Shown: positions 3,597-63,438 of the stretch, piece by piece
Layout of the letters: each line of letters opens with the position of its first letter
How positions within the stretch are numbered: position 1 is the stretch's first letter
NCBI GenBank assembly: GCA_963807525.1
Contig: CAWECI010000025.1
Coordinates: 26,062 to 90,061 of the forward strand
DNA: 64,000 nucleotides
DNA from: Candidatus Aminicenantes bacterium
GTDB lineage: Bacteria > Acidobacteriota > Aminicenantia > Aminicenantales > Saccharicenantaceae
Direction: 5' to 3'
Notes under the pieces: model-generated
Databases searched by the model: none
The model's input: only the letters and a program-made list of their open reading frames with translations
What the model was told of the DNA's origin: nothing
Position numbers and translations under genes: made by a program

Positions 3597-5921
3597 ATGA
3601 GACACGCCGGGCCCATCGCGATGATGCTGGCCCTGCTCCTGGCCGCCGCTCCGCTGCTTTGCGGCTCCGGGACCGCGCCCGCCGGTGCGGCCGTCCCCGA
3701 TAAGACCCAGGGCTTTTTCCCCGTCTCCGTCTGGTACGCGGGCGGCAAGGCCCGGGCGCCCATGCTCGAGACCGTGACCCCTCAATCGCGCGAGGTCTGG
3801 AAGAAGGACATCGAACAGATCAAGCGGCTGGGCTTCAACACGGTCCGGACCTGGATCGAGTGGACGGCCTGCGAAAAGAACGAAGGGCGATACGACTTCT
3901 CGGCCCTCGAGCTCCTCACCGATCTGGCCGGCGAGGCCGGGCTGCGGGTCATCGCCCAGGTCTACATCGACTCGGCCCCCGACTGGGTCGGCCGGAAATA
4001 CCCCGACGCCAAGTTCGTTTCCTCGAACGGGGTGGCCGTCGAATCGCAGGCCTCGCCCGGGTTCTGCTTCGACCACGACGGCGTCCAGGAGAAGGTCCTC
4101 GATTTCTTCAAGGCCGCGGCCCGGGCCGTCAAGGGCAAGCCGGCCTTCTACGGCTGGGACCTGTGGAGCGAGCCCCACATCATCAATTGGGCCGAGGTCT
4201 ATTACGTCGGCGACCTCAACTCGGTCCAGTTCTGCTACTGCCATTCGACGCAGGACCGCTTCCGGGACTGGCTGCGGAAGAAATACGGCACCGTCGAGGC
4301 CCTCGACAAGGCCTGGTACCGGACCCTGCGGTCGTGGGACGAGGTCCAACCGCCTCGCTACGGCACCATCCTGACGTTTACCGACTACATCGACTGGAAG
4401 GAATTCATCTCCGACAAGCTGGCCGAGGACCTGGCCCTCAAAGCCGCGGCCGTCAAGTCGGTAATGCCGGACACGGTCGTCACCAGCCACTCGGCGGCGC
4501 CCGGCATCTTCACCCGGCCCGACTGGTCGGGGACACCCGACGACCGGAAGATGTCCGACAGCGTCGATTTCTACGGCGCCTCGATCTACCCCAAGCATGC
4601 CTGGACGGTCCGGCCGTGGTCGCCCTTCTACCGCTCCTCGGGGCTCGACTTCGTCCGGTCCATGGGGATCGGGAACGGCGGCTTCTATATCGGCGAGCTC
4701 CAGGCCGGCTACGGCGTCTTCGGCATGAAGATGAGCTATCCCGTGGTGGCGGCCGACACGCGCGACTGGATGTGGAGCACGATCGCCTACGGCGCCCGGG
4801 CGGTCAACATCTACGCCTATTACCCGATGAGCACGGGCTACGAGGCCGGCGGCTACGGCCTGGTCGAGCTCGACGGCAAGGTCACCGAGCGGGCTGAGGC
4901 CGGCGGCCGGATCGCCCGGGTGGTCACCGCCAACCAGGACCTCTTCCTCAAGGCCCGGCCGGCCCCGGCCCAGATCGCCATCCTTTATGATCCGCTCTCG
5001 CACATGGTCGGCGGCCAGCAGGCCTACACCGGCGAAGGCCAGACGATCGGCGTCAACAACCTGAGCGAATCGCTGCAGGGCGTCCACCGGGCTTTTTTCG
5101 AGAGAAACATCCCGGTCGACTTCCTCCACGTCCGCGACTTGGGCACGCCGCGGGCCGCGGGCTATAAGCTCATCATCGCCCCGTACCCGGTCATGATGTC
5201 CCGGCCGCACGTCCAGGCCCTGGTCGAGTACGTCCGCGCGGGCGGCACGCTTCTCACCGAGGCCCGCTGCGGCTGGGTCGACGAGAAGGGGGCCTCGAGC
5301 CCGATCGTCCCGGGCGGCGGGCTCGACCAGGTCTTCGGCTGCCGCGAGCTCGAGCTGACGCCGCTCGCCAAGACCGGCGTCGTCGAGATCAAGGCCGCCG
5401 ACGAGGCCTTCCCACTGCTCAAGCCGGGCGACAGGCTCGACAGCCTGTTCTTCGAGGAAAGCCTGGACGTCTTCGGCAAATCGAGCCGCGTCGTGGCCGT
5501 CTTCCCGGACGGGCGGCCGGCCGTCGTGGCCGCGCCCTTCGGGAAGGGGAGGGCCATCATCGCCGGCTCGTTCCTCGGCTCGGCCTACCATCACTTCAAG
5601 AACCCCAACAATGGCAAGTTCTTCGCCGGGCTAGCCGACTGGCTCAAGATCGCGCCGGCCGTCCGGGTCAGTGCCTCGGCGCCGGACGCCGTCGTCGAGG
5701 CCCGCCTGCTCCAGGGCGACGGTTACGCCCTCCTCTTCGGATTCAACCGCGGCGACAGACCGGTCACCGCCAAGTTCGGCGTATTGACCTCGGCCGCCAA
5801 GCCCGTTGCCGCAGACCTCGAAATGGGTCAGGCCGTGGGAACCGGGCGCGACGGGGACCGCGTCGTCGTCGAAAAGACCCTCCAGCCGGCCGAGGTCTGG
5901 GTCGTGCATATTAAATGGTAG
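3597..5921 (+). CDS. GH42 beta-galactosidase
   Basis: ATG at 3597, 9 nt after GAGAGG; signal peptide; GH42-like N-terminus (KRLGFNTVRTWIEWTACE...) and trimerisation-like C-terminus; ORF track start 3588 is GTG overlapping the RBS. Confidence 0.75.
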   Translation: MRHAGPIAMMLALLLAAAPLLCGSGTAPAGAAVPDKTQGFFPVSVWYAGGKARAPMLETVTPQSREVWKKDIEQIKRLGFNTVRTWIEWTACEKNEGRYDFSALELLTDLAGEAGLRVIAQVYIDSAPDWVGRKYPDAKFVSSNGVAVESQASPGFCFDHDGVQEKVLDFFKAAARAVKGKPAFYGWDLWSEPHIINWAEVYYVGDLNSVQFCYCHSTQDRFRDWLRKKYGTVEALDKAWYRTLRSWDEVQPPRYGTILTFTDYIDWKEFISDKLAEDLALKAAAVKSVMPDTVVTSHSAAPGIFTRPDWSGTPDDRKMSDSVDFYGASIYPKHAWTVRPWSPFYRSSGLDFVRSMGIGNGGFYIGELQAGYGVFGMKMSYPVVAADTRDWMWSTIAYGARAVNIYAYYPMSTGYEAGGYGLVELDGKVTERAEAGGRIARVVTANQDLFLKARPAPAQIAILYDPLSHMVGGQQAYTGEGQTIGVNNLSESLQGVHRAFFERNIPVDFLHVRDLGTPRAAGYKLIIAPYPVMMSRPHVQALVEYVRAGGTLLTEARCGWVDEKGASSPIVPGGGLDQVFGCRELELTPLAKTGVVEIKAADEAFPLLKPGDRLDSLFFEESLDVFGKSSRVVAVFPDGRPAVVAAPFGKGRAIIAGSFLGSAYHHFKNPNNGKFFAGLADWLKIAPAVRVSASAPDAVVEARLLQGDGYALLFGFNRGDRPVTAKFGVLTSAAKPVAADLEMGQAVGTGRDGDRVVVEKTLQPAEVWVVHIKW

Positions 5922-5924
5922 ATA

Positions 5925-5997
5925 AAATGGGGACGTTTCTATTTATTTTTTTCATGATGGACGAAGATGAATAAAAAAAATAGAAACGTCCCCATTT
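5925..5997 (+). terminator. palindromic element (20-bp arms AAATGGGGACGTTTCTATTT / AAATAGAAACGTCCCCATTT) followed by TTTCTTTCTCC; likely rho-independent terminator of GH42 gene; member of a repeated family
   Basis: perfect inverted repeat read directly; starts 4 nt after GH42 stop; T-rich tail. Confidence 0.6.
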
Positions 5998-6090
5998 CTT
6001 TCTCCCGGTCGTCAACTGCGCCATGATCGTCGGCCTGACCCTCGTCGGCAGACTGAGGGCGGGCCGGCCGGCGCGGAAGGAGAGCGCATC

Positions 6091-8856
6091 ATGAGGCCAC
6101 GGAACGGATCCCGGTCCCTTTTCCCGCTCGTCGCGGGTTTCCTCTTCGTCTTCGGCGCGATGGCCTTTGCCCAGGACGCCGCGACCGCTGCGGCGCAAAA
6201 GGAGCTCAGCCAAAAATACGCCCAGCTCCTGGCCGAAAAGGGCGTCACCGACGAGGCCGGCCGGGAGATCGGCGGCCGCTTGGAAAAGATCTTCGCCGAG
6301 GCCCGCGCGGCCGGCGCCAGGACCTCCAAGGACCTGGTCAGGTTCGCCCTCACGGCCATGAACTACGCGGCCTCGAACCTGGCCGGCTTCCCGCAGGCCG
6401 CGTTCGACCGGCCCATCGGCACGCGGCTCGAGAAGTTCGGCCACGCCATCGCGCCGGGCGATATCGAGGCCCGGGCCGAAGGCTCCGGCTGTCCGGTCGG
6501 CGGCCTCGGCGCCGGCGGCTTCGAGCGGCTCATGAACGGCAATTTCTCGACCTGGTTCCTCAAGCTCGGCTGGATGGTCGAGGACACGGTCTGGGCCGAC
6601 CAGTTCCATGTCTTCGTCAGGTCCGGCGGCCGGACGGTCGCCAAGACCCTCTCCACGACCGCCCCGCCCGCCGCCGCCGGCCTGGGCGCCTGGGCCTGGA
6701 GCTATCCCGTCGGCCGGGGCGACTATTTCGCCCTCTTCCCCAAGTCCGGCTTCTCGTACGAAGAGAACGCCGACCTGCCCGTCAGGCTGGCCGTCGTTCA
6801 GTTCTCGCCGATCCTGTCGGGCAACTATAGGGAGACGAGCTATCCCGTCGCCATCTATAAATGGATCGCCCAGAATCCGACCCAGCAGCCGGCCCAGGTC
6901 AGCATTCTCCTGACCTGGGAGAACATGGTCGGCTGGGAGCCGGTCGAGGCCCGCCCGGCGGCCGGCCAGGCGCCCCAGGCCTCCTTCGTCTGGGACCGCC
7001 GCAGCGCCGGGAACTTGAACGAGACCGTGCAGGACGGCCGGGCCAAGGGCGTCTTGTTCCGCCGGCAGGGCCAGAACGTCCGGACGGGGAACGCCATGTC
7101 CGGGTCCATGGCCATCGCCGCCCTGGAGAGCCCGGACAAGTCCCGGGTCCTCATCCAACCCGCCTTCGACCCGCGCGGCGACGGCACCGACGTCTGGGCG
7201 AAGTTCGCCGCGGACGGGACGCTCGAGACGTCCCGGACCTCCTCGCCCGCGGGGCCGGGCCAGGAGACGGGCGCGGCCGTGGCCGTCACCTTCACCCTCA
7301 AGCCGGGCGAGCGTCTCGAAGTGCCCTTCGCCGTCGCCTGGGACCTGCCGTACTACGAGTTCGAGGCCGGGGCCAAGCACAAGAAGAAATACACGGACTT
7401 CTTCGGCGACGGCGGCCTGAGCGCCTTCCGCATCGCTGCCGAGGCCCTGGTCCGGGCGGGGGAGTGGGAACAGGCCATCGACGCCTGGCAGAAGCCGAGC
7501 CTGACAAACCCCGCCCTTCCGGACTGGTTCCGGCAGGCCCTGCTCAACGAGCTCTACGTCCTCGTGGAGACCAGCATCTGGGACGCGGCGACCAACCTTC
7601 ACACCTATCTCGAGAGCGCGGACTACCTCATGTACGGGACGACCGACGTCGATTCCTATTGCTGGCACGTCCTGCGCCTCTGGCCGGAGCTCGAGACGAC
7701 CCACATGAGCTATCTCGCCGGGACCATCCCGCTCGAGGACGCCTCCTACCGGGCCTTCCAATACGCGACCGTGTTCCCGAACGAAGTCCCAGCCGACAAG
7801 AAGGACTATTACTGGAACACGATCAAGCAGGCCGGCATGGTCCCCCACGACGTCGGCTCGCCGCGCAAGCGCCCGTGGACGATCCTGAACGCCTTTGATT
7901 GGCAGAACGCCAACTACTGGAAGGACATCAACCCGAAATTCCCGCTTCGCGCCTACCGGGACTTCCTGGCCACCGGCGGCATCGACATCGGCTTCCTGAT
8001 GAAGATGTTCCAGGCCTCGGTCCTGGCCCTGGACACGCTGGAGGCCCGCTTCGGTGACAGGATCAGCCACGTCCCGCTCGCCGAGGGCATCCCCGACCAG
8101 ACCTATGACACCTGGCGGATGAAAGGGGAGAGCGCCTACGTCGGGCTGCTATGGCTGGCCGGGCTCAAAGCCACGGTCCGCATGGGCGAGACGCTGGCCT
8201 CGCGCGGCCTCGTCCGGGCCGGGGACTTGGATATCCGCGAGATCCTAGTTAAATACAGGGGTTGGCTCGAAAACGGCCGGGCCTCTCTGCGCAAGCTCTG
8301 GGACGAGAGGGCCGGCTACTTTCATATCGACGCGACGAAGGACGACATCATGACCGACCAGCTGTTCGGCGTCTGGTACGCGGACATGCTCGGGCTCGAG
8401 GACGACGGCCGGGACCCGATCGTGCCGCCTGCGGACGCGGCCCGGGCCCTGCGGACGATCTACGACAAGAACGTTCTCGGCTTCGGCGGCGGCGTCATGG
8501 GCGCGGTCAACGGCCGCAAGGCCGACGGCGGCCAGCTCCGCAGCCAGCAGGGCGACGAGGTCTGGGTCGGCACGGCTTACGCCTTCGCCGCCGACCTCGT
8601 TCTCCACGGTCTCCCGGCCGAGGGCCTTCACACCGCTTACGGCGTCTATCAGGTCGTCTATAGTCCCTATGGACAGGGTTATTTCTTCAAGACGCCGGAG
8701 GCCTATCTCGACCCCGACGAAACCCTCTGGAACGATCCGGCCGGGAAGTACGGCGAGAAGACCTTCCGGGCCATGAAGTACATGCGGCCGGGCGCCGTCT
8801 GGGCCCTTTATGAGGTTCTCAGAAAAAATGCGGAAAAGCCGGTACAGAACAAGTAA
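6091..8856 (+). CDS. large secreted (alpha/alpha)6-type glycoside hydrolase, GH116/glucosylceramidase-like
   Basis: 921 aa, signal peptide (AMAFAQDA); size and two-domain layout resemble GH116 (DUF608); family call is tentative recall. Confidence 0.4.
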   Translation: MRPRNGSRSLFPLVAGFLFVFGAMAFAQDAATAAAQKELSQKYAQLLAEKGVTDEAGREIGGRLEKIFAEARAAGARTSKDLVRFALTAMNYAASNLAGFPQAAFDRPIGTRLEKFGHAIAPGDIEARAEGSGCPVGGLGAGGFERLMNGNFSTWFLKLGWMVEDTVWADQFHVFVRSGGRTVAKTLSTTAPPAAAGLGAWAWSYPVGRGDYFALFPKSGFSYEENADLPVRLAVVQFSPILSGNYRETSYPVAIYKWIAQNPTQQPAQVSILLTWENMVGWEPVEARPAAGQAPQASFVWDRRSAGNLNETVQDGRAKGVLFRRQGQNVRTGNAMSGSMAIAALESPDKSRVLIQPAFDPRGDGTDVWAKFAADGTLETSRTSSPAGPGQETGAAVAVTFTLKPGERLEVPFAVAWDLPYYEFEAGAKHKKKYTDFFGDGGLSAFRIAAEALVRAGEWEQAIDAWQKPSLTNPALPDWFRQALLNELYVLVETSIWDAATNLHTYLESADYLMYGTTDVDSYCWHVLRLWPELETTHMSYLAGTIPLEDASYRAFQYATVFPNEVPADKKDYYWNTIKQAGMVPHDVGSPRKRPWTILNAFDWQNANYWKDINPKFPLRAYRDFLATGGIDIGFLMKMFQASVLALDTLEARFGDRISHVPLAEGIPDQTYDTWRMKGESAYVGLLWLAGLKATVRMGETLASRGLVRAGDLDIREILVKYRGWLENGRASLRKLWDERAGYFHIDATKDDIMTDQLFGVWYADMLGLEDDGRDPIVPPADAARALRTIYDKNVLGFGGGVMGAVNGRKADGGQLRSQQGDEVWVGTAYAFAADLVLHGLPAEGLHTAYGVYQVVYSPYGQGYFFKTPEAYLDPDETLWNDPAGKYGEKTFRAMKYMRPGAVWALYEVLRKNAEKPVQNK

Positions 8857-24884: not shown

Positions 24885-24985
24885 CGGGGTTTGCCAGGCC
24901 CCACATCATAACAGCGCCGCCGCCTGGTTTTCAATCGGGGACAGCCCGCCGCCGGGATCATCTCTTGACAAATTAAAAAGATATA

Positions 24986-25012
24986 TTAAGATATAACTTA
25001 GATATATCTTAA
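24986..25012. promoter_or_regulatory. AT-rich palindromic operator TTAAGATATA-N7-TATATCTTAA upstream of padR, with TTGACA at 24965
   Basis: 10-bp perfect inverted repeat in a 60-bp AT-rich island within 70% GC DNA, 25 bp upstream of PadR start. Confidence 0.55.
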
Positions 25013-25036
25013 TTATCGTTATCTTAGGAGGCTGTT

Positions 25037-25558
25037 ATGTTCAACAGGCACGATTTCAGGGGTTGGGGACCGGAGCGCATGTTCCACAAAGGCGACTTCA
25101 AGTATCTCATCCTCGACCTTCTCAAGGACAAGCCCCGGCATGGCTACGAGATCATCCGCGAGCTCGAATCGAGATCTCACGGCTTCTATTCCCCGAGCCC
25201 CGGGACCGTCTATCCCACCCTCCAATATCTCGAAGATATGGGCTACGTGACCGGGATCGAGCAGGACGGCAAGAAGATCTATACCGTCACCGAAGAGGGC
25301 CTCAAATTCCTGGACGCCCAGGCCGGCACGGTCAACGATATCAGGGACCATGTCCGCAGCCATTGGCATGATCTGGGCTCCGAATTCGGGGTCCAATTCC
25401 GCGAGGTCATGCGCGAATACGGCGAGATCGGACGGGTGCTCGGTCAACGGGTCCGGCGGATGTCCGCCGACAAGCTGCCTCGGATCGGCGCCGTGCTGAA
25501 GACGGCCCTGGGCGAGATCGAGAAGATCGTCACCGAGGAAACGCCGCCCCAGAGATGA
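25037..25558 (+). CDS. padR: PadR family transcriptional regulator
   Basis: 173 aa; FKYLILDLLKDKPRHGYEIIRELE...GTVYPTLQYLEDMGYV winged-helix signature; GGAGG RBS. Confidence 0.85.
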   Translation: MFNRHDFRGWGPERMFHKGDFKYLILDLLKDKPRHGYEIIRELESRSHGFYSPSPGTVYPTLQYLEDMGYVTGIEQDGKKIYTVTEEGLKFLDAQAGTVNDIRDHVRSHWHDLGSEFGVQFREVMREYGEIGRVLGQRVRRMSADKLPRIGAVLKTALGEIEKIVTEETPPQR

Positions 25559-25825
25559 GCCAACACCTTGACGAAGGTAGCATGATATTTCGCAGGACAA
25601 CGGCTTCGAGTGCTCAGCCGGGCTTCTGCCGCTCGCTCGCGTGAGAAAGGAAGCAAGGAGGGCCTGGAGAGGAATCCCCGTTCCTGCCCCGTCTTTCGCA
25701 ATAGCCTTGGATGGGGCCCTCCTTGCGTTGGCCCCATTCTCTGTCTGCGCCCTGCGGCGGTCAATCGCCGGAAGCGGCGGTTGCCGAGGTGAAATCCCCT
25801 CTCGCAAGGGGGTGAGGCCAGCCTC

Positions 25826-25890
25826 AAGAAGGGGTCAAACCTACGCAATGCCAGTTCCGTACTGGCATTGCGTAGGTTTGACCCCTTCTG
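25826..25890 (+). other. perfect 30-bp-stem hairpin (5-nt loop) closing a structured ~330-nt noncoding region
   Basis: CAAGAAGGGGTCAAACCTACGCAATGCCAGT-tccgt-ACTGGCATTGCGTAGGTTTGACCCCTTCTG read directly. Confidence 0.8.
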
Positions 25891-25924
25891 TTATCATGAG
25901 GCGACATCGGAGGAGGGAGGCCCC

Positions 25925-26857
25925 ATGAACGTCAAAAAGTTCATCGAAACCCAGGTCGACGAGATCAAAAAGTCCGTCGGCTCCAGCAAGGCCATCTCGG
26001 CCCTGTCCGGCGGCGTCGACAGCTCCGCCTGCACGGTCCTGGCCCACCGGGCCCTTGGCCCGCAGCTCAAATCGGTCTTCATCGACCATGGCCTGATGCG
26101 GGCCGGCGAGCCGCTGGAGATCGCCAATGTCTTCGCCGGCCTCGGCATCGCCGTGGACGTCGCCGACAAGCGGAAAGAATATTTTGCCGCGCTCAAGGGC
26201 AAGGCCGATCCGGAGGAGAAGCGCAAGGCTTTCCGCTACGCGTTCTACAGCTCCTTCGGCAAGGAGGTCCTCAAGAGCAAGGCCCGTTTCCTCATCCAGG
26301 GCACGATCGCCGCCGACATCATCGAGACCCAGAGGGGGGTCAAGACCCAGCACAATATCCTCGAGCAGATCGGCATCGATCCGGAGAAGGGCTTCGGCTT
26401 CAAGGTCATCGAGCCGCTCAAGGAGCTGTTCAAGCACGAGGTCCGGCTGGTGGCCAAGGAGCTCGGCCTGCCCGAGTCGATCTGGAACCGCATGCCCTTC
26501 CCCGGGCCGGCCCTGGCCACCCGCATCATCGGCGAAGTGACGCCCGAGCGGGTCGATCTCGTCCGGGCCGCGACCACGATCGTCGAAGAGGAAGTGGCCG
26601 CCCACAAGCCGTTCCAGGCCTTCGCCGTCCTGCTCGAGGACAAGGGCACCGGGCTCGTCAAAGGCGAGCGCCTGTTCGGCCACATCATCATCGTCCGCTC
26701 GGTCGAGAGCAGGGACGCCATGACGGCCGAGCCCTCGGCCCTGCCCTGGCCCACGCTGATGAAGATCACCCAGCGGATCACGACGGAGCTGCCCCAGGTC
26801 ACCCGCGTCGCCTACGAGCTCACGGCCAAGCCACCGGCCACGATCGAATACATCTAG
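25925..26857 (+). CDS. guaA: GMP synthase ATP-pyrophosphatase/dimerisation subunit (GuaA C-terminal half, no glutamine amidotransferase domain)
   Basis: ATG preceded by GGAGGAGGGAGG; PP-loop SGGVDSS; C-terminus KPPATIEYI matches the GuaA C-terminus; only ~310 aa. Confidence 0.75.
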   Translation: MNVKKFIETQVDEIKKSVGSSKAISALSGGVDSSACTVLAHRALGPQLKSVFIDHGLMRAGEPLEIANVFAGLGIAVDVADKRKEYFAALKGKADPEEKRKAFRYAFYSSFGKEVLKSKARFLIQGTIAADIIETQRGVKTQHNILEQIGIDPEKGFGFKVIEPLKELFKHEVRLVAKELGLPESIWNRMPFPGPALATRIIGEVTPERVDLVRAATTIVEEEVAAHKPFQAFAVLLEDKGTGLVKGERLFGHIIIVRSVESRDAMTAEPSALPWPTLMKITQRITTELPQVTRVAYELTAKPPATIEYI

Positions 26858-26922: not shown

Positions 26923-28666
26923 ATGCCCTATTCGGGAAAGAAAAAAGGCGGCCTGCCCACCTTGGGCATTTTTGTGCCCTGCGATCCCCGCATCGACAAG
27001 GGATCGCGCGACCGGGCCTTCAATATCGGCCAGATGACGGCCGGGCTGCTGGCCAAGCGCCTGCGCCTGCCCGACGGCGCCGCCCCCAACATCTTCACCT
27101 GCTCGCAGCTCGTCGACAGCGAGTCCACGGCCGACCTCGGGGCCCGGGAGATGAAGGACGCCGGCGTCGAGGCCATCCTCGTCGTCCCCGACACCTGGTT
27201 CTTTCCCGGCAAGACGGCCATGGCCCTGACGGCCCATTTTCCGCCGTCCACCCCGCTGGCGTGCGTCGGCGGCAACAACGCGCCCAAGCCGGGCGTCGTC
27301 GGCATCGATGCCCTCGTCGGCGCCTACGCCCAGACCGGCCGGCTCTGCCCCATGGTCATCGGCTCCATGCCCGAGACCGGGCTTCATCCCGAGTTCGACG
27401 CCGGGACGCAGGAGGAGATCGTCGATCTCGCCTACGCCATGCTGACGCGCGTGGCCCTCCGGGGCCGGCGCTATGTCTCGATCGACACCGACTCCATGCA
27501 GATGGAGACGGCCCTCAACCACGTCCATGCGGCCCGCCGTTTCTTCGGCCTGGAGAGCACCCGCGAATCGATGAAGCTCTTCGCCGACATGGTCCGCAAG
27601 AAAGGCGGCTACGATCCCGAGGAGCTCAAGGCCCTCCACGACTGGATCGTCAACGTCAAGTTCAAGGACCGCATCTACGCCAATTCCGAGGACATCGTCC
27701 GGCACGGGCATCCTGTCCTCACGGGGAAGGCCCCCAAGCCGCCGGCCCTGAGGCGCCGCCGACAAGGCCAAGCTCGACGAGGGTCTGGCCCTCTACCTCA
27801 TCCTCCGCAACTACATGCGCGACGTCAACGCCATCGGGGGCGGCTGGACGAACCAGCTCGGCTGGGGCTCCGACCGCCGCGGCCTGCCGCTTTCGACGGC
27901 GGACATCGCCGAATCGCTCTTCAACTCGACCGAGGACCACACCGGCAAGAAGATGGTCGTCCCGTTCGCCACCGAGAACGACATCCAGGCCCTGCTCACG
28001 ATGATCGCCTATTGCTATCTCGCCGGGGGCCAGCCGACGCTGTTCATGGATTTCCGCAAGGTCTACGAGCCCTGGGAGATCGAGAAGAACGCCCGGGCCC
28101 TCGGCCTGGACCTCAAGAAGCTCGCCGGGGAACCCTGGATGGAGCGGGGCTTCATCGACGGCAACAATTCCGGTTCGGCCTCGCTCGATTTCGGCCGCCG
28201 GTGGTTCCTGTTCAAGGCCGTCGAGTTCTATTTCCCCGGGCTCGGCTTCTCGGTGAGCTACCTCTCGCCGAAGGGGATCAAGGGCCTGGCCGGACGCATC
28301 GCCTTCTCCGACCTCTCCGGTCTCTTCACCATGGTCCAGGACGAGGCCCAGTCGGTCGAGCTCCCCGCGGCGCTGGCCGAGAAGGTCTGCCACGCCTCCG
28401 ATTACACGTGGCCGCACACCTTTCTCACCTTCGACCATGTCCCGGCCAGCTTGGCCAAGATGGGCATGCCGGCCAACCATTTTCATATGGTCGCCGGCCT
28501 GCCGCGCCGCCGTTGGCAGCATCTTTCCGACTACGCCAACATCCTCAACTACCGATGGGAGGACGCGCCGGAGTTCGTCGAGGGTTTGGACCGGCCCCTG
28601 CCCATGCTCTACCGCATCAACGGCGGGGAGACGGCGGCGAAGATGCTGCTGGCGGGGCGGAGGTGA
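26923..28666 (+). pseudogene. fucI: L-fucose isomerase with single frameshift near 27745-27760
   Basis: N-terminus LPTLGIFVPCDPR...AGLLAKRLR parallels E. coli FucI LPKIGIRPVIDGR...AALLTEKLR; downstream half in another frame (ORF 27815..28666) contains FATENDIQALLTMIAYCYLAGGQPTLFMDFRKVYEPWEIE matching FucI [41 protein letters not shown]; an in-frame TGA at ~27752 in the downstream-half frame separates the two halves. Confidence 0.65.
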
Positions 28667-48944: not shown

Positions 48945-50777
48945 TTATTTATTTGTGTTCTTGAGCTTCACTGTGCGCTTCTCCCAATGATGGAACTTCG
49001 TCCAACGATCAAGCGCGGCCTTTGAGTTCTTTGTCGACTCTCCCTCTAAGAGGGCATTAATCCTTGACCAGGTAAGGTCTTGGGCATAGGACAGGTGCAT
49101 GATCCAGCGGAGCTCGCTCAGCGTGGGCGTCTCGAATGAGGGATCGATGGCTTGCCATTCCTTGAGGGCCTGCGCCTCCATGCGGTTGTCCCAAAAGAGG
49201 CCGCCCATCGCATATCTGGCCCGGCTCCCGGTCTTGCCGCCTTGCTCGATCAGAAGCCGGTAGATCCGTTCCTGCTCATCAACATAATCCTGGAGAACAG
49301 CATCAATTCTTTCAAGGCCGCGATGTCCGAGGGCCGAAGCGAGATCACGGTGGATCCCGCCGAGTACAAAGGCTTTTGCCCGTCTGTCGAAGACCTCGGC
49401 TCGGCCCCCGAAGTGACCTGCGAGCACGTCCTCTATCTCATAGACCGAATCGGTAAGATAGGCCAGGGCCCGGCGTTCGAAGTCGTAGAGCGAGGCTAGG
49501 AAAAATAGGATCTCGATCCCTGTGCGGCTGGTAAAGTTCTTAAGCCCATAGGAGATGAGGTCGCTCTGCGTCGTCTTGACATAAAAGAGCTCCTCAAGGA
49601 AGTCGAACGCCGTTGAAACCCGATTTCCCAAGTTGAAGGCTCCGGCGAGGTTCTCGTAAAGGAAACGCCGAGTGAGTTGGGCCAGAATGGGGTCGTTGAG
49701 GTCCCGGCCGACCAGGTATCTCTCCATGAACACCCGGACTTGTTCTCCGTCGTCGAGCTCCATCAGGTCGTCCAGGATCTTCGGGATATTCTTCTCGGAG
49801 AGCCCGGGCAGCTCGGGGAGCTTTTCCGCGGCGGTCGGTCCCTCACGCTTCGACGATGACGGCATATAGACGATCTTGATGGCGTCCGGCGGACCGGGAA
49901 TATCGGCCGAATTCGGGCGGCTGCCCGAAGCGTCCGCCTCCCTGGAAGATGCTGACTTAGCCGGGATCTCAAGCTTTGGGAAGCCCGACACGGTAAAGAA
50001 GACGCTCGCGCCGAGGGCGATCATGCCCTCATAAGGGCAACTCCTGTAATAGTATTCCTCGGGGACCCGGGTGAAGCCCGTGTCAGTGGGGATCTCGACC
50101 TCGTCGACGTGGCTCCTCTTGCTCGGCTCTTCATTTTCCGACCTTAGGGACGCGAGCCTTTTTAGAGTGGCAGAACCGGTTCGATAAAGGACGGGCCGCT
50201 CGTCGGGAGACGTCTTAAGAGGATAGAGAGTGTCTCCGCTCTCCGTTTTAATGGGACCCTGAAGATCTGTCCCCAGCGATAGCCCCCAGGGGGGATTATC
50301 CAACGCCGACAGCCCGGAGCGTCTTTCCTTGAGTTGCCCGAGAGAAGCCCGCATAAGAGAGCGGAAGATTTCCGTCTGTTCCCGTTGGCCGAGGCGAGGG
50401 TCGAGCTGGGGAGAGTGCTCGAAGATGTAATCGTAAAGGTCGTCATTGAGCGTGGCTAAAGCTTCTTTCAATACCTTTGCCTCCTGTGGATCAAGCTGCA
50501 TGCTTGCCACGGCCTGCTTGACAGCTTCCTTGCTCCGGCTGACTTGATTAGGCTTCAGAGGCCGTTGAGTGGCATATTGGGAAATCACCAATAGGCCAAG
50601 AATCGTGAGATGGAGGGTGAGTGACAGGATGACAGAGCTCGCGAATCGTGCTCTTAGATTTCGGAAATAGCTTAGACAACGGGAAGTGCATCTATACGGC
50701 CATGAACGCCGCGATACGAAACCGAACAGGTCATCAACCGGTTGACCCATCCTCCGGTCTCCATCTAACAAGATCAT
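48945..50777 (-). CDS. membrane-anchored hypothetical protein (610 aa), low GC
   Basis: single TM (SVILSLTLHLTILGLLVISQY) then large soluble domain without recognisable motifs; at edge of low-GC islet. Confidence 0.45.
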   Translation of the reverse strand: MILLDGDRRMGQPVDDLFGFVSRRSWPYRCTSRCLSYFRNLRARFASSVILSLTLHLTILGLLVISQYATQRPLKPNQVSRSKEAVKQAVASMQLDPQEAKVLKEALATLNDDLYDYIFEHSPQLDPRLGQREQTEIFRSLMRASLGQLKERRSGLSALDNPPWGLSLGTDLQGPIKTESGDTLYPLKTSPDERPVLYRTGSATLKRLASLRSENEEPSKRSHVDEVEIPTDTGFTRVPEEYYYRSCPYEGMIALGASVFFTVSGFPKLEIPAKSASSREADASGSRPNSADIPGPPDAIKIVYMPSSSKREGPTAAEKLPELPGLSEKNIPKILDDLMELDDGEQVRVFMERYLVGRDLNDPILAQLTRRFLYENLAGAFNLGNRVSTAFDFLEELFYVKTTQSDLISYGLKNFTSRTGIEILFFLASLYDFERRALAYLTDSVYEIEDVLAGHFGGRAEVFDRRAKAFVLGGIHRDLASALGHRGLERIDAVLQDYVDEQERIYRLLIEQGGKTGSRARYAMGGLFWDNRMEAQALKEWQAIDPSFETPTLSELRWIMHLSYAQDLTWSRINALLEGESTKNSKAALDRWTKFHHWEKRTVKLKNTNK

Positions 50778-50865
50778 TATAACCCCTCGGGACCGGTACG
50801 CAAAACCTTATCTTAAGGCCGAGATAGCGGAGTTGACATAATTTCACGAGGGATGACTTCGGGGC

Positions 50866-51022
50866 CGCTAATTAGAAAACTTGCCCCTGGTTACGGTTCC
50901 GGACTGATAAGAAAGAGAGAGTTGGCCTTTATGGCATATCGCCGAATTCTCAGGGCAAAAGGGAGAAGGGGAGATGGCTGGGGAGCGAGGATTCGAACCT
51001 TGATTGCATGATCCAGATCATG
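50866..51022 (-). repeat. repeat copy A: degenerate 3' half of tRNA-Gln plus ~110 bp of its 3' flank (direct repeat of 55027-55219)
   Basis: ...GGGAGAAGGGGAGATGGCTGGGGAGCGAGGATTCGAACCTTGATTGCATGATCCAG matches copy C ...GGGAGAAGGGGAGTTGGCTGGGAAGCAAGGATTCGAACCTTGATTGCATGATCCAG; 5' half of tRNA absent. Confidence 0.75.
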
Positions 51023-51052
51023 AACGACTCCAGTTCCGTTGCTCGCGATGGG

Positions 51053-51784
51053 CTACCGGCCTAGAAGCCAAGCCTCTGAGCCTCTGAAAAAGAACATGAT
51101 GAGCAAAACGAGCACAAATAGTACCGGCAGCGTTATGGAATAATACGTCCCCATCTGAAGCTTAAGGGGCCTGGCGTCCATCTTCTTAAAGGTCAACCAG
51201 AAGGCCATACCGAAAGGAACGAGAAGAACTGCGGCGGAAACCAACTGTGGAACAAGCGAGCCTAAGTGACTGGCGAAGTTCCCTCCGAGCCTTGAAAGGA
51301 GGTAACCGAAGGTGTGCCCTCCTTGGAAAAAGATAAGGTACATAAGTACGACGCCGAAGACGTTGATAGCGATGGAGAAGACCCCGATGCTCAAGAAGAT
51401 CGAGCTGAAAAATAGGACAAGAATCGTGATGCCCGCATCGGCAAGAAGGGTTCGGCCGACGATAATCGTCGCCGCTAAGCCCAATACCATGAGAAGTCCG
51501 AAACGAGGCAGGATCTTTGCCAGGATGACCTTCCTTCGAGTCACCGGCAGTGAGAACAGATACTCGAACGCCCGATCTTTTCTCTCCGTTTGAAAGATCG
51601 TCGCCCCGGCATAAATGGAATATATGACGAGCGTAAGAATGAACCCTGTATTAATAAGGCTGGCGTAGTCGAGCCCCACTTTAAAGACCAGCCTATCTCC
51701 TATATACATAAAAGGGATAACGGCAAGGACCACCAAGCTCTCAACAAACCTCTTCAGAGCATCCCGGACTTCTTTTCTAATCAT
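51053..51784 (-). CDS. ABC-2-type transporter permease / polytopic membrane protein
   Basis: 243 aa, ~6 TM helices, overlaps upstream ABC ATPase gene by 8 nt; ~45% GC. Confidence 0.5.
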   Translation of the reverse strand: MIRKEVRDALKRFVESLVVLAVIPFMYIGDRLVFKVGLDYASLINTGFILTLVIYSIYAGATIFQTERKDRAFEYLFSLPVTRRKVILAKILPRFGLLMVLGLAATIIVGRTLLADAGITILVLFFSSIFLSIGVFSIAINVFGVVLMYLIFFQGGHTFGYLLSRLGGNFASHLGSLVPQLVSAAVLLVPFGMAFWLTFKKMDARPLKLQMGTYYSITLPVLFVLVLLIMFFFRGSEAWLLGR

Positions 51785-52601
51785 ATTCGCCTCCTATGAA
51801 AGCCGAGACGATTTCCGTGAGATTTAGATCAATTATGTCACCCTCGATCGTCCCTCGGAGACCGTTGTCAAAAGGGTAGACGAAGAACTCAGAATGCTCC
51901 GAGTAGTCAATTTGGGAGAGCACGTTCAGAGAATCTGGCCGGTTTCTGGCAACAATCCTCTTCACCTTGGACTTGAGGTCTTCAATATTCTCATCGACAG
52001 CGATTTCGCCTGATTTCAGGAGAATGACTCGTTCGATCAGGTGCTCAATATCGTGGAAATTCACATTGACCATGACCACCGTCACGCGGCGTTTGGAGAG
52101 GATCTGGACGATCTGCTCAAGGAAGACTCTTCGGAGGTATGCGTCAATCGAGTGGATGATCTCGTCGATCAACAGCACCGCTGGCTCTAGGGAGAGGATG
52201 AGGTTCAGATGAAAGATGGTCCTCTGGCCAATCGAAAGTTCGCGAACCTTTTGACCATAGCCGATCTTCGTATGCCGGACGAGTGAATCATCAAATGAGG
52301 AGAGACCATAAACCGACTTATGAAATCCGATGGCCTCGGCGATAGTCAAGCTCTCATAAAGGCTCAAAGCATCAGAGACGAAGCCGATCTTCCGCCGGGG
52401 ATCGGCACCCAGTTTAGTATCGTAACTGATTTTCCCATTATCTGGCCTCAGGACGCCGGCCATGAGGCGCAAGAGCGTGCTCTTGCCGACACCGTTGATG
52501 CCTGTGATAAGACAGACTTGGCCTTCGGGGATGCTGAGGCTAAGATCCCTGAAAACCCCAGTTTTTCCATAACTAAAGGACGCTCCCCTAATATCGATCA
52601 T
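51777..52601 (-). CDS. ABC transporter ATP-binding protein
   Basis: Walker A GINGVGKST, signature LSIGQRT, Walker B LLIDE. Confidence 0.8.
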   Translation of the reverse strand: MIDIRGASFSYGKTGVFRDLSLSIPEGQVCLITGINGVGKSTLLRLMAGVLRPDNGKISYDTKLGADPRRKIGFVSDALSLYESLTIAEAIGFHKSVYGLSSFDDSLVRHTKIGYGQKVRELSIGQRTIFHLNLILSLEPAVLLIDEIIHSIDAYLRRVFLEQIVQILSKRRVTVVMVNVNFHDIEHLIERVILLKSGEIAVDENIEDLKSKVKRIVARNRPDSLNVLSQIDYSEHSEFFVYPFDNGLRGTIEGDIIDLNLTEIVSAFIGGEYD

Positions 52602-53023
52602 TTCCGTGTTCCTTTCTCCTGGCGGACGGGGGTGCCGATATTTGTCATCGCGGCGACCTCCCGGAGTATTTGTTCCGCTGAGTAACCGAGCTCCAAGGCC
52701 TTCGAAATATATTCCTCCGTAACCGCCCTGAAAAGTTCAGGGCTGCCCTTGCGAAATCTAGCTGGGTCGAGTTTGACGTAATATCCGGCACCAGGCCGCG
52801 AATAAATGTAGCCTTCATTTTCGAGCTGCCAATAAACTTTGATGATTGTGTTAGGATTGACCATGAGCTTAAGGGCCATTTCCCTAAGCGTCATGAGTTG
52901 CTTTCCGTTTTCCCACCGCCCCGATAGGATGGCTAGCTTGATGGCCCGCTTGATCTGCTCATACGCCGGGACAGCAGACTTGGCGTCTATCTTGATTTGG
53001 CGAAATTCCTCCAGTCTTTCCAT
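52598..53023 (-). CDS. GntR family transcriptional regulator, YtrA-like short subfamily
   Basis: 141 aa; GntR HTH (MTLREMALKLMVNPNTIIKVYWQLENEGYIYSRPGAGYYV); directly upstream of ABC ATPase/permease as in ytrA operons. Confidence 0.8.
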   Translation of the reverse strand: MERLEEFRQIKIDAKSAVPAYEQIKRAIKLAILSGRWENGKQLMTLREMALKLMVNPNTIIKVYWQLENEGYIYSRPGAGYYVKLDPARFRKGSPELFRAVTEEYISKALELGYSAEQILREVAAMTNIGTPVRQEKGTRK

Positions 53024-53041
53024 TGCTATACTGATATAGCA
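53024..53041. promoter_or_regulatory. palindrome TGCTATA-ctga-TATAGCA immediately upstream of the GntR start; candidate autoregulatory operator
   Basis: 7-bp perfect inverted repeat read directly. Confidence 0.45.
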
Positions 53042-53144
53042 TAGTAGAGCACATTGTCAAGAGCTATTTTCGCTCACAGACTTGGCGATAGGTAAGAGCC
53101 TATCCTCTTTTTCCGGACCTCTCCCTATTTGTCTACAATTTGTC

Positions 53145-53265
53145 TGTGGCGTGCCCAAATAGGCTGAAAGCGCCGCTAAATTACGGTTTCGGACCGAAAA
53201 CGATGAGAGTCGGGTCTTATCGCAAGCCGTTGAAACCTCGGGAGCCAAGAGGGGAGGGTGGATAA
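53145..53265 (-). repeat. repeat copy B of the tRNA-Gln 3'-flank element (no recognisable tRNA part)
   Basis: GGCGTGCCCAAATAGGCTGAAAGCGCCGCTAAATTACGGTTTCGGACCGAAAACGA...TCGGGTCTTATCGCAAGCCGTTGAAACCTCGGGAGC ~85% identical to 55027-55135. Confidence 0.7.
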
Positions 53266-53471
53266 GTATCAAGGGATTGGACCCGACCATTAGCGCATTC
53301 ATTAACGGTATTCGGTATAAGTCAATCGAATCCGAGATTCAGGCACTTCAGCAACATGTCCGGGTCGCTGGGCCCAAATAGGGAGTCATTCCCTCAGACC
53401 ATCCCGCGCTTTACTCCGGTGGGTCCTTTTGGATAAAATCATTGTGCGCTTGTGAGGGCAAAGTGAAGGGA

Positions 53472-54134
53472 ATGGACGGTCGGCTAGTCTTGACGATTTT
53501 GGCCAGCTTTAGTGTGTTCTTGATAGCTGCAGGAATCGCTTCGACTAATCCTGCCGGCCCGTCCGATTCCGTCTTGCAAGCACTAATAGCCCTCTCGGTT
53601 TCGGCGCTGCTATTCATAGTCATCCGGCTTATCCTGTTTGTATGCCATCGAAAGCGGCATAGGCATGACCCTCCTCTCCTGACTGAATCTGGTGGCGGTC
53701 GCGCAGGCTTTTTTCATAGGAGATCGGCCATCCTCTTCATCGTCTTCCTGGTGGGGAGGTTTGCATTGGGTGCTCTGGTAAATAGTCGATTGAGTATCTC
53801 GACCCTTCTTATTATTTCATTCCATGTTCTGCTGACTGTCTCTTTAGGGTTTTTATATTCCCGCTGGGCTTATTCTGAAGAATACGTCCCGATCCTGGTT
53901 GCGCTGATTGTGACGGTTGCCGATTCCGCATTATATGCGTTTAATTACGCTAGTGATCCGTCCCATCAATTCAGATATGGGCCCGAAATTTTCTGGTTCG
54001 CGGCTTCCGGTGTGTCTGGGAGGCTAATGCTTGTCCCAATAATCTCGGTGATCATATGGGGGAGCTGGAAGTTGTCAGCGCCAAGGCAGACTATAGATAT
54101 AGCTGACCCACCAGCACTTATCGGGCTGAGCTAA
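53472..54134 (+). CDS. hypothetical polytopic membrane protein
   Basis: ~220 aa, 5-6 TM helices, low GC. Confidence 0.4.
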   Translation: MDGRLVLTILASFSVFLIAAGIASTNPAGPSDSVLQALIALSVSALLFIVIRLILFVCHRKRHRHDPPLLTESGGGRAGFFHRRSAILFIVFLVGRFALGALVNSRLSISTLLIISFHVLLTVSLGFLYSRWAYSEEYVPILVALIVTVADSALYAFNYASDPSHQFRYGPEIFWFAASGVSGRLMLVPIISVIIWGSWKLSAPRQTIDIADPPALIGLS

Positions 54135-54180
54135 AAAAGGGTGGGTTGGGGTGGGTGAGGGGAATTGAACCCCCAACCTT

Positions 54181-54214
54181 CGGGTCCGGAGTCCGACCCC
54201 CATTTTTTTTTCTA
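54181..54214 (+). terminator. rho-independent terminator (GGGTCCGGAGTCCGACCC hairpin + T9)
   Basis: read directly after membrane-protein gene; preceded by G-rich tract with tRNA T-arm-like GGGGAATTGAACCCC on the opposite strand. Confidence 0.55.
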
Positions 54215-54326
54215 GACCTTCCCTCTTTGCCCGCCATTTGTCTGTGGCGTGCCAAAGAGGAGCGGTACCTGCTTTGACTTTCATTGCCAGTTGAGGTCTT
54301 ATTTAGTTATCAAGACCAGGGAGGGA

Positions 54327-54890
54327 ATGATGAAAAAGTATCTCCGGGTTGTTCCGTTGGTCCTTCTTCTTTGTTTCGTCATCAACTGCCAAGACAAGGC
54401 GGCTATGGCAGAATTGGAAAAGTACAGGGCTCAAGCCGCCGTTGAGGGGCAAAACAAGGCCCTGGCGCTTCGCTGTGCGGATGCGTTTCAAAGGGGAGAT
54501 GTCGCTGCCCTAAAGGGTATCTTTTCTCCCGATTATGTTGGGTATTTACATGATAACATCGTACCCGATAACACCACCCGTACCCAAACCTATGAAATGG
54601 CGCTTGAATCCTGTAAGAATCTCTCGGCATCGTATTCTGATGTTGCCATAATCGTTGAAGAAACGATTGCAAAGGGAGACAAGGTAACAATTAGGTATAC
54701 TGCTAAAGGAACATATACAGGGGCTGACTTGGGTTTACGGGATGTGCGAAAGAAGATAGAGATAAGCGGTATTGCCATAGAACGGATTGAAAATGGGAAA
54801 ATTGTCGAAGTCTGGGACGCGGCAGATAGCTTGAGTTTCTTTAGACAACTTGGCGCTGAACTTACGCTAAATTTAGAAAAGAAGAAGTGA
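54327..54890 (+). CDS. SnoaL-like (NTF2 fold, ester-cyclase-like) lipoprotein
   Basis: start MMKKYLRVVPLVLLLCFVINC (lipobox) preceded by GGGAGGGA; SnoaL-like pattern ALALRCADAFQRGDVAALKGIFSPDYVGY...KVTIRYTAKGTYTG...VWD. Confidence 0.55.
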   Translation: MMKKYLRVVPLVLLLCFVINCQDKAAMAELEKYRAQAAVEGQNKALALRCADAFQRGDVAALKGIFSPDYVGYLHDNIVPDNTTRTQTYEMALESCKNLSASYSDVAIIVEETIAKGDKVTIRYTAKGTYTGADLGLRDVRKKIEISGIAIERIENGKIVEVWDAADSLSFFRQLGAELTLNLEKKK

Positions 54891-55026
54891 GCCATACCAC
54901 AGCATCCAACTCGCTGATCTTCTTGAGTCAACAGAGGGGAAAATAAAAGCGCGCCCGGGTGATTCGAACGTAGCCAGAGGGTCCCCTAGTTCCTAGCACT
55001 CTCCCTCAAACTCGCCGTGTGACCAT

Positions 55027-55145: not shown

Positions 55146-55219
55146 TGGCTGGGAAGCAAGGATTCGAACCTTGATTGCATGATCCAGAGTCATGAGTCCT
55201 GCCGTTGGACGACTTCCCA
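55146..55219 (-). tRNA. tRNA-Gln (anticodon CUG), CCA encoded
   Basis: hand-folded: acceptor TGGGAAG/CTTCCCA, D-arm GTCC-AACGGCA-GGAC, anticodon arm CATGA-CTCTGGA-TCATG, T-arm CAAGG-TTCGAAT-CCTTG, discriminator G, CCA; resembles E. coli tRNA-Gln acceptor UGGG...CCCAGCCA. Confidence 0.8.
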
Positions 55220-59762: not shown

Positions 59763-59767
59763 AAGAA

Positions 59768-59829
59768 GGTACCGGGTTTACGCATTACGCAAGATCCGGA
59801 GAAGACGCGTAATGCGTAAGCCCGGTACC
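59768..59829 (+). terminator. long imperfect hairpin (23-bp arms GGTACCGGGTTTACGCATTACGC / GCGTAATGCGTAAGCCCGGTACC, 16-nt loop) after lon
   Basis: read directly, 1 mismatch; no U-tract. Confidence 0.45.
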
Positions 59830-59854
59830 TTCCGGGGATTCCGGGGGAAGACGA

Positions 59855-63263: not shown

Positions 63264-63345
63264 ATCAGGCCTGAAAATTCAATTTTCCCAGGTCTTCCCA
63301 AAACTCGGCCGGCCCGGGGATGGTTGCGGAAAGCGGGGACGTCTC

Positions 63346-63413
63346 GGAAAATGGGGACGTTTCTATTTTCCCCAACCGGTGACCCTGGGAAAATAGAAAC
63401 GTCCCCATTTTCC
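63346..63413. repeat. second copy of palindromic element (arms GGAAAATGGGGACGTTTCTATTTTCC, 16-nt loop) in degP/tmk divergent intergenic region
   Basis: 26-bp perfect inverted repeat read directly; core identical to 5925-5997. Confidence 0.75.
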
Positions 63414-63438
63414 CCGATTTTTGCTATCATGGCGCCGC

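Follow-up and report, generated by a model that had tools for sequence, protein, structure and literature searches.

The window analysed here is a 64-kb stretch of a Candidatus Aminicenantes genome (contig CAWECI010000025.1), and the region under study is the 366-nt spacer at 25559-25924, which separates two plus-strand genes. The upstream neighbour encodes a padR-family regulator (25037-25558), recognised by domain and homologue matches. The downstream neighbour (guaA-C, 25925-26857) encodes a stand-alone GMP-synthase C-domain or ATP-pyrophosphatase-like protein of 310 aa that matches Pfam NAD_synthase and GMP_synt_C. Its ribosome-binding site (RBS), GGAGGAGGGAGG, lies at 25909-25920 and its ATG at 25925-25927, also on the plus strand. 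The matches of PadR and of NAD_synthase/GMP_synt_C confirm the gene context given in a first-pass annotation. Two structures stand out in the spacer, a long perfect hairpin close to guaA-C and a repeat with 12-bp arms closer to padR. We consider it very likely that the hairpin is one copy of a transposase-linked repeat beside the guaA-C promoter and that the 12-bp-stem element is a separate unit, most likely a small RNA (sRNA).

The hairpin occupies 25827-25889 and is strand-neutral. Its left arm (25827-25855) and right arm (25861-25889) are 29 nt each and 100% complementary, and they enclose a 5-nt loop, TCCGT, at 25856-25860. The first-pass annotation had described a perfect 30-bp stem in 65 nt; the perfect stem is real, and the element measures 29 bp and 63 nt, with A25826 and G25890 unpaired. 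The core GGGGTCAAACC lies at 25831-25841 with its complement at 25875-25885, and the inner arm is CGCAATGCCAGT. Folded as single-stranded DNA, the 78-nt stretch around the hairpin reaches -37.9 kcal/mol, with z-scores of -14.5 (plus strand) and -12.9 (minus strand). The window was also shuffled 15 times, and no shuffle gave a stem longer than 20 bp, even with 2 mismatches permitted. The nested repeat with 12-bp arms and the strongly structured spacer noted earlier are likewise present, the 366-nt spacer being more stable than its shuffles on both strands (z = -7.4 plus, -6.9 minus). The window also holds three further long intergenic hairpins of other types.

Comparison drew on loci from relatives and metagenomes, which carry L-numbers as labels (L001, L008 and so on). 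The orthologous loci were chosen by PadR (66-84% identical), whose homologues are labelled Candidatus Aminicenantales. Several metagenome contigs from a single strain group encode the PadR protein, and three of these contigs stop inside the hairpin: L002 and L003 end at window position 25876 and L004 at 25856, all in independent assemblies of the same strain. Such breaks could be taken as a sign that the perfect palindrome is an assembly artefact. The chance of this is close to nil. The complete hairpin is identical in the independent JGI contig L001, which is 99.5% identical to the window and has the same spacer, with 31 substitutions and one indel in the flanks. The left part of the hairpin recurs in four further assemblies and family members occur in unrelated ones (at least 120 stretches), and contig breaks are expected at repeats and palindromes.

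Inside the 64-kb window the hairpin arm is single-copy, but it is multi-copy across the lineage of the organism. A survey of hairpins in the window and its relatives grouped them into families, and the family of the target has the core GGGGTCAAACCTA; the outer arm of the window hairpin, (AAGAA)GGGGTCAAACCTA, is this conserved core. A metagenome scan with the exact 22-nt arm of the window returned 18 stretches, representing about 14 distinct loci (about 13 besides the window) with differing flanks and loops. A wider scan with the pattern GGTCAAACCTA-N29-59-TAGGTTTGACC, limited to one genome per species, matched at least 120 genome stretches, nearly all from metagenome-assembled genomes of Ca. 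Aminicenantes and many per genome. In the complete chromosome OY970261.1 at least 17 copies lie in 15 matched blocks of 8 kb, and partial sampling showed 17-25 copies in single genomes; a rough expectation is about 10^2 copies per genome. The first-pass annotation had suggested a search for further copies of the arm, on the grounds that a multi-copy arm would point away from a riboswitch, and the arm is indeed multi-copy. Of the options it listed, that of a miniature element was broadly correct, as the arm is part of a dispersed family of inverted repeats with a link to a tyrosine transposase.

The anatomy and placement of the family were counted on 135 non-nested copies. From the outside inwards, each copy has the conserved stretch AAGA-N-GGGGTCAAACCTA, 5-17 nt of inner arm and a loop of 1-58 nt, and the stem is free of internal mismatches in 89 of the 135. 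The inner arm is genome-specific. It is CTCGTTACGCA in three genomes, AACTTTTAAACTTT and TACSTTTTTAATTT in one each, CGCGATGCCAG in three genomes and part of a fourth, and CGCAATGCCAGT in the window. Copies of the CTCGTTACGCA group also share a conserved non-palindromic centre, which is found in both orientations. At the orthologous guaA-C site the arms match each genome's own subfamily (L008, and CAWJKR in L039), and homogenisation or re-insertion is therefore indicated. The window arms differ from CGCGATGCCAG by an A-T pair, a G-to-A plus a C-to-T change that affects both arms. A local compensatory change was considered as its origin and rejected; the same variant recurs at about 13 other loci, so the pair is a subfamily mark. 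Transition mismatches in the stems gave no signal of selection at the RNA level, since those leaving G.U on the transcribed strand numbered 4 versus 5.

The repeats are tied to a tyrosine transposase. In L141 and L144, which represent one locus from two samples, arms of the window type bound a 1.1-kb segment of lower GC content with a 318-aa open reading frame (ORF). The ORF (L141 239-1195) matches Pfam Y1_Tnp with 47 bits and NCBIfam REP_Tyr_transpos with 81.1 bits, the cutoff being 80. It carries the motifs NHYH, FQ (as FQGRF) and YVHLNP, and residues 253-277 at its C-terminus match Bac_DnaA_C weakly; DnaA itself also matches the C-terminus. In L048 the ortholog stands behind the end of the same upstream gene, between CGCGATGCCAG arms, the type of that genome's dispersed copies. 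Three more homologues, in L151, L152 and L153, are 53-58% identical and each is flanked by matching arms. Doublets flank the gene in L151. In L152 the flanks are lone arms in inverted orientation whose core has co-varied (GGTCAAATCTAC / GTAGATTTGACC), and in L153 they are doublets with a diverged core (GGGGCCAGGTCTAC), of which three further copies lie within 13 kb. A distant homologue in L095 adjoins a copy of the CTCGTTACGCA group (arms CTCGCTACGCA / CTCACTACGCA), its flanking being seen only in part. Arms of the genome's own type thus flank the transposase in every locus checked, in six genomes, fully in L141/L144, L048, L151, L152 and L153 and partly in L095. The locus is syntenic in five genomes, with a SIS-domain gene, the transposase and then, on the opposite strand, radical-SAM/LAM_C, acetyltransferase and two ATP-grasp genes.

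The transposase family has more than 6,000 database members; many are named RayT, and many sit on contigs of about 1.1-1.3 kb, as expected if repeats on both sides break assemblies. A PDB sequence search with the transposase gave no significant match. ORFs recurring near the copies were sought as a sign of another transposase, and the only clusters were of ordinary gene families. GC content is 46-51% in the transposase genes and 60-63% in their hosts, despite the single syntenic locus of these genes (L141 239-1195; L151 6001-6945; L152 3401-4348; L153 6001-6945). Sister repeats with diverged cores were also observed, with GGGGCCAGGTCTAC in L153 (5402-5462, 5874-5934, 6949-7009 and 12323-12421) and L156 (10140-10196), and GGTGTCAGACCTAC in L154 (8331-8387). 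L156 carries a classical GGGGTCAAACCTAC copy too (678-763), so two repeat types may coexist in one genome.

The placement of the copies, judged with gene calls from a simple self-trained gene finder, is strongly intergenic (131 of 135). Among 112 fully classified copies 50 lie between convergent genes, an arrangement found in 94 of 453 background intergenic regions; 22 copies have divergent gene starts on either side. GGGG lies most often 3-5 nt past a stop codon (median 9 nt), and the extended consensus TAAGAAGGGG...CCCCTTCTTA frequently includes the stop codon; the median distance to a gene start is 70 nt. The flanks of the family are A-rich and T-rich (AATAAGAA ... TTCTTATT), and the window copy is followed by UUCUGUUAU. 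On this evidence the hairpin might be mainly a terminator or a stabiliser of 3' ends, ending padR or plus-strand intergenic transcripts and insulating guaA-C, with the whole family a reused terminator module. The position 3-5 nt past stop codons and the enrichment between convergent genes fit this, as does the resemblance of the A-rich and T-rich flanks, with UUCUGUUAU after the window copy, to a bidirectional terminator; the window scan found no canonical terminator after padR. However, a terminator needs no class-wide conserved 13-nt core, no genome-specific inner arms and no transposase gene flanked by them. The 22 copies between divergent starts include the orthologous copies of L009 and L039, which have nothing to terminate, and canonical terminators with a GC hairpin and U-tract do occur in the lineage (L008 1-45). 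The window hairpin was not called as a terminator by the scan. Termination is therefore an unlikely primary explanation. The terminator and repeat readings are compatible, and termination would be a secondary role of the repeat: the hairpin may also halt read-through from padR, as a stop codon directly precedes most members of the family, a terminator-like position.

The kind of repeat is already known, and this family of it is new. We file the hairpin as a doublet of terminal inverted repeats (TIRs) associated with a transposase of the TIRYT type, resembling the REPINs formed by repetitive extragenic palindromes (REPs). As judged from its sequence, the transposase is of the TIRYT type, in TnpA-REP subclass 2.1 and group 1 of the REP-associated tyrosine transposases (RAYTs), with an HUH/Y1 core and a DnaA-C-like helix-turn-helix (HTH) tail. 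The NHYH, FQ and YVHLNP motifs together with the DnaA_C-like HTH place it in that subclass. The arm start, GGGGTCAA, agrees with the GGGGWSAS motif at 7 of 8 positions. As in TIRtrons, a subclass 2.1 transposase with a C-terminal HTH is accompanied by long flanking TIRs with GGGGWSAS. The REPIN features are present too, since the repeat is multi-copy and extragenic, forms a hairpin from an inverted pair and flanks a RAYT gene. A classical REP unit is an imperfect palindrome of 20-40 nt with an unpaired GTAG/CGTC tag at one end, which the arm is not. The doublet is not filed as a classical GTAG-footed REP because the single arm forms no hairpin by itself. GTAG does occur in many subfamilies (GCGTAGG), but within the doublet stem, and others have TTAG or ATAG.

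Related systems have been described in other lineages. TIRYT genes are flanked by long inverted repeats that share GGGGWSAS (Di Nocera et al. 2013, PMC3733652), and some TIR repeats are moderately abundant dispersed families arranged as dimers (PMC3733652). Subclass 2.1 of TnpA-REP (Quentin et al. 2018) is equivalent to RAYT group 1, and the TIRYTs correspond to it (PMC6006769). A clear association with repeats was found only for RAYT groups 2 and 3 (Bertels et al. 2017, PMC5581495), the group 1 RAYTs showing about 12 occurrences of flanking 16-mers and "no REP" (PMC5581495). The present system shares with TIRtrons a Y1/HUH transposase with NH[YF]H, FQ and Y[IV]HLNP motifs and a C-terminal DnaA_C-like HTH, as well as long inverted repeats with a GGGGWSAS-type start (here GGGGTCAA) that flank the gene and form a dispersed family, often as dimers. 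It differs from described TIRtrons in its Ca. Aminicenantes lineage and in a family that seems to exceed the "moderately abundant" TIR families in size and regularity. It differs also in that the transposase keeps one syntenic locus across divergent genomes, the copies lie close to stop codons and the inner arm is genome-specific. The REPIN-RAYT systems of Pseudomonas and Enterobacteria (Bertels & Rainey 2011, PMC3116915; Nunvar 2010; Ton-Hoang 2012) resemble it in their inverted doublets that form a long hairpin, in their extragenic position with tens to hundreds of copies in genome-specific sequence populations, and in a repeat-flanked transposase, which here keeps the same syntenic locus in five genomes and may be vertically inherited. 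Unlike in those systems, the unit here is not a palindromic REP with a GTAG foot, the RAYT group is another one, and the loops are highly variable among copies with identical arms.

Two other kinds of dispersed inverted repeat have to be weighed. The first is a classical miniature inverted-repeat transposable element (MITE), derived from an insertion sequence (IS) with a DDE transposase, whose TIRs bear an outward -35 box. The Correia/NEMIS elements of Neisseria are MITEs of 100-155 bp that bear promoters or terminators, are DDE-derived and have TA target duplications. Like them, the element described here is a small inverted repeat by genes whose ends give promoter boxes or hairpins that affect neighbours; its TIRs of 25-30 bp, small size, intergenic position and outward TTGACC near each end, as in many IS ends, would all suit a MITE. 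Unlike in Correia/NEMIS, the partner enzyme is a Y1 transposase, and inspection of copy flanks by eye showed no direct target-site duplication. A recurrent DDE transposase is also missing from the neighbourhood of the copies, and the only arm-bounded gene found encodes a Y1/HUH tyrosine transposase that is syntenic rather than mobile. A DDE-derived MITE is accordingly very improbable. The second is that the core is a DNA-uptake-type sequence in inverted pairs after genes, like the DNA uptake and uptake signal sequences (DUS/USS) of Neisseria and Haemophilus. A conserved core of about 12 nt in inverted pairs downstream of genes throughout the lineage has that appearance, but the density is low, with one copy in the 64-kb window, and the core seldom occurs unpaired or within coding sequence. 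Repetition extends to the inner arms and to some loops, and the arms flank a dedicated transposase. We give the uptake explanation hardly any credence.

The TIR-doublet reading leads to the following model. The 63-nt hairpin is a single copy of a palindromic, non-autonomous Candidatus Aminicenantes repeat in which two inverted TIR units of about 25-30 nt, each made of AAGA-N-GGGGTCAAACCTA and a genome-specific inner part, form a REPIN-like doublet. By analogy with the biochemistry of IS200/IS605 and of E. coli TnpA-REP, the transposase would act during replication, recognising single-stranded arms or hairpins and then cutting and re-joining them. Cutting and re-joining would spread the copies and homogenise them within a genome.

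The hairpin adjoins the predicted promoter of guaA-C. Upstream of guaA-C, relatives carry the series (G)TTTGACCCC, a 17-nt spacer, TATCAT or TATGAT, GAGGC, the RBS and ATG, which is conserved in 9 loci. In L011 the same promoter sequence precedes a fucose-isomerase-like gene that elsewhere follows guaA-C. Judged by its consensus and conservation, this is a predicted promoter of the sigma-70 type, in which the repeat core TTGACC serves as the -35 box in relatives. In the window the putative -10 box, TATCAT, lies at 25892-25897 on the plus strand, supported by both consensus and comparison, and is preceded by T25889 and G25890, which fit an extended -10 (TGnTATCAT). A candidate -35 box, TTGCGT, is found on the same strand at 25868-25873 with an 18-nt spacer to TATCAT. 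The repeat core TTGACC at 25878-25883 stands only 8 nt before the -10 box, an arrangement shared with L155, and in both loci the right arm ends 2 nt before this box. The window copy probably supplies TTGCGT as -35 and the TG of the extended -10.

A family copy occupies the guaA-C position in L008, L009 and L039, and decayed arms are found there in L010 and L011. In L154 and L156 a doublet of the current type lies directly upstream of a separate TTGACCCC. The guaA-C site would then be an old one, orthologously occupied, in which the window holds a fresh and perfect repeat copy. The spacer separates divergent genes in L009, L039, L154 and L155. A remnant of the M20 peptidase gene that lies between padR and guaA-C in L009 and L010 was sought, and the best tblastn match had an E-value of only 0.09.

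These comparisons also bear on the proposal that the region controls a purine gene as a riboswitch or attenuator leader whose expression platform is the long hairpin. The position upstream of a GMP-synthase-like gene, the strong fold and the high conservation of part of the region would be in keeping with this. However, the hairpin lies upstream of the predicted guaA-C start, and in relatives the genes on either side of the spacer diverge, so the hairpin should not form part of a guaA-C leader. The conserved promoter lies downstream of the hairpin or overlaps it, and the hairpin is a dispersed repeat. The Rfam check that had been proposed, run on 25300-26200 at E <= 10, returned no purine, PRPP/ykkC, c-di-GMP or ZTP family; only miRNA-precursor models matched the long stem, at no more than 33.6 bits against thresholds of 71-200. 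At gathering thresholds the whole window yielded two tRNAs only. The conserved 12-bp-stem element is absent from L009, L010 and L039, which have the same gene and promoter, and in L011 it stands before the fucose-isomerase-like gene rather than guaA-C. A leader role is highly unlikely, and the riboswitch and attenuator options of the first-pass annotation are not supported.

The 12-bp-stem element is a unit of its own. Its closing-stem arms are GCAAGGAGGGCC at 25653-25664 and GGCCCTCCTTGC at 25715-25726. Across six genomes the element (25653-25726) is 89-99% identical at the nucleotide level, compared with 70-82% for padR and 78-91% for guaA-C in the same genomes. It contains indels of 1, 2 and 3 nt and is therefore not coding. 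The element is single-copy and syntenic; it is absent from the three loci named above and present in L011. An Rfam search gave no match for it. A covariance-model search of 0.88 Mb of Aminicenantes DNA scored only the orthologous copies (109-115 bits), with the rest at 24 bits or less. A sigma-70-like promoter was called by the scan on the minus strand at 25736-25764, with the -35 box TTGACC (25764 to 25759), a 17-nt spacer and the -10 box GAGAAT (25741 to 25736). In six genomes the -35 box is TTGACC (TTGACG in L156), the spacing is exactly 17 nt and the -10 box is GAGAAT, GACAAT, GACGAT or GAAGAT, with a spacer sequence that is not conserved. Hexamers at a fixed distance with a free spacer have the look of a real promoter, and a minus-strand sRNA is therefore proposed. 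From its sequence the element is most likely an sRNA of about 90 nt, transcribed from its own minus-strand promoter, beginning near 25729 and ending near 25640. The candidate (25640-25730, minus) has the 12-bp closing stem around some 50 nt, followed by a C/U-rich tail (UUCCUUUCU). The suggestion of an sRNA with a strong terminator is not supported for the hairpin itself; the 12-bp-arm repeat does look like an sRNA gene, read from the opposite strand.

Several points weigh against this combined account of the hairpin and the element. The single arm has no structure of its own (-0.7 kcal/mol, z = +0.8) and lacks an unpaired GTAG foot. Transposition by the tyrosine transposase is a step that we infer from related systems. 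The loops vary widely between copies with identical arms, a variation that would fit single arms pairing independently, or rapid loop turnover, better than the copying of one master doublet. Copies per genome are known from partial sampling only. The -35 and -10 boxes of guaA-C in the window are weak matches and were not called by the consensus promoter scan. For the sRNA, RNAalifold was run on both strands and the stem is invariant, which makes covariation uninformative; the tail is C/U-rich with no clean U-tract, and the strand is assigned by the promoter alone.

Other features accompany these two structures. The strand-neutral stretch at 25584-25638 consists of the motif GATATTTCGCAGGA, an imperfect hairpin and TTCTGCC. 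Across loci the motif (A)GATATTTCGCAGRA is followed by a hairpin and TTCTGCC, and the stem varies between loci yet stays paired. A similar motif with compensated hairpins occurs in L017 (721-777) and L043 (6560-6607, minus), upstream of an enolase-superfamily gene, and four tandem copies lie directly before the conserved element in L154 (about 7940-8130). The small strand-neutral hairpin CCCCT-CTCGCA-AGGGG at 25796-25811 is kept in part in L008 and absent in L011, L155 and L156; sequence comparison provides no evidence of a function for it. Within 24965-25016 the padR promoter, TTGACA-16-TAAGAT at 24965-24992, overlaps an AT-rich palindrome, ATAACTTAGATATATCTTAATTAT, which is a likely PadR operator. 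Four of the 31 inter-strain substitutions fall in this palindrome or directly after it. Downstream, an extra G at 27750 relative to L001 breaks the reading frame of a fucose-isomerase-like gene (580 aa), leaving ORFs 26911... and 27815-28666 in two frames. This extra G is either a frameshift or a sequencing error.

Hairpins of other families were also observed. A second family sharing AAAATGGGGACGTTTCTATTT is represented at 5922-6000 and 63342-63417 in the window and at 4791-4862 in L009, with arms of 23-31 nt and loops of 14-33 nt; one copy lies directly after a stop codon and one between divergent genes. From its arm start, GGGGAC, this family may be another TIRYT-type system. A 26-bp hairpin at 59765-59832, between a Lon-like gene (end 59762) and a thiL-like gene (start 59855), has the arm AAGAAGG-TACCGGGTT-TACGCATTACGC. 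It may be a diverged relative of the target family, with which it shares the outer AAGAAGG and the TACGCA spacing. A further family, with the arm GGTGACACACAACTAAATACACTT, occurs downstream of glycoside-hydrolase genes in L010 (104-183 and 4994-5075) and L009 (about 4960-5030). The window also contains a low-GC island at 50000-55000 (49-54% versus about 65%) beside tRNA-Gln (55146-55219, minus), which may be an integrated element.

A bolder reading joins these results. The conserved element would be an undescribed regulatory RNA, whose invariant C/U-rich stretches (CCUCUCC, CCCUCCUU) could act as pairing partners for Shine-Dalgarno sequences, the RAYT repeats would have been domesticated as promoter (-35) and terminator modules, and a vertically inherited group-1 RAYT partner would exist outside Proteobacteria. 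We regard this as possible and put it forward tentatively.

In summary, the results remove a false riboswitch lead from annotation and explain why assemblies of these uncultured bacteria break at such sites; the repeats fragment Aminicenantes assemblies. They link a REPIN-like population to a group-1 transposase (TIRYT, subclass 2.1) in Ca. Aminicenantes, a group of transposases in which surveys saw little or no repeat association. The repeat core and the transposase appear to diverge together at a fixed transposase locus, which would extend the picture of a "vertically inherited replicator" beyond Pseudomonas and Enterobacteria. The guaA-C site provides a concrete example of repeat arms reused as a predicted promoter -35 box. 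The conserved element, which exceeds its flanking genes in conservation, is a testable new candidate for a small RNA and the more novel of the two structures.

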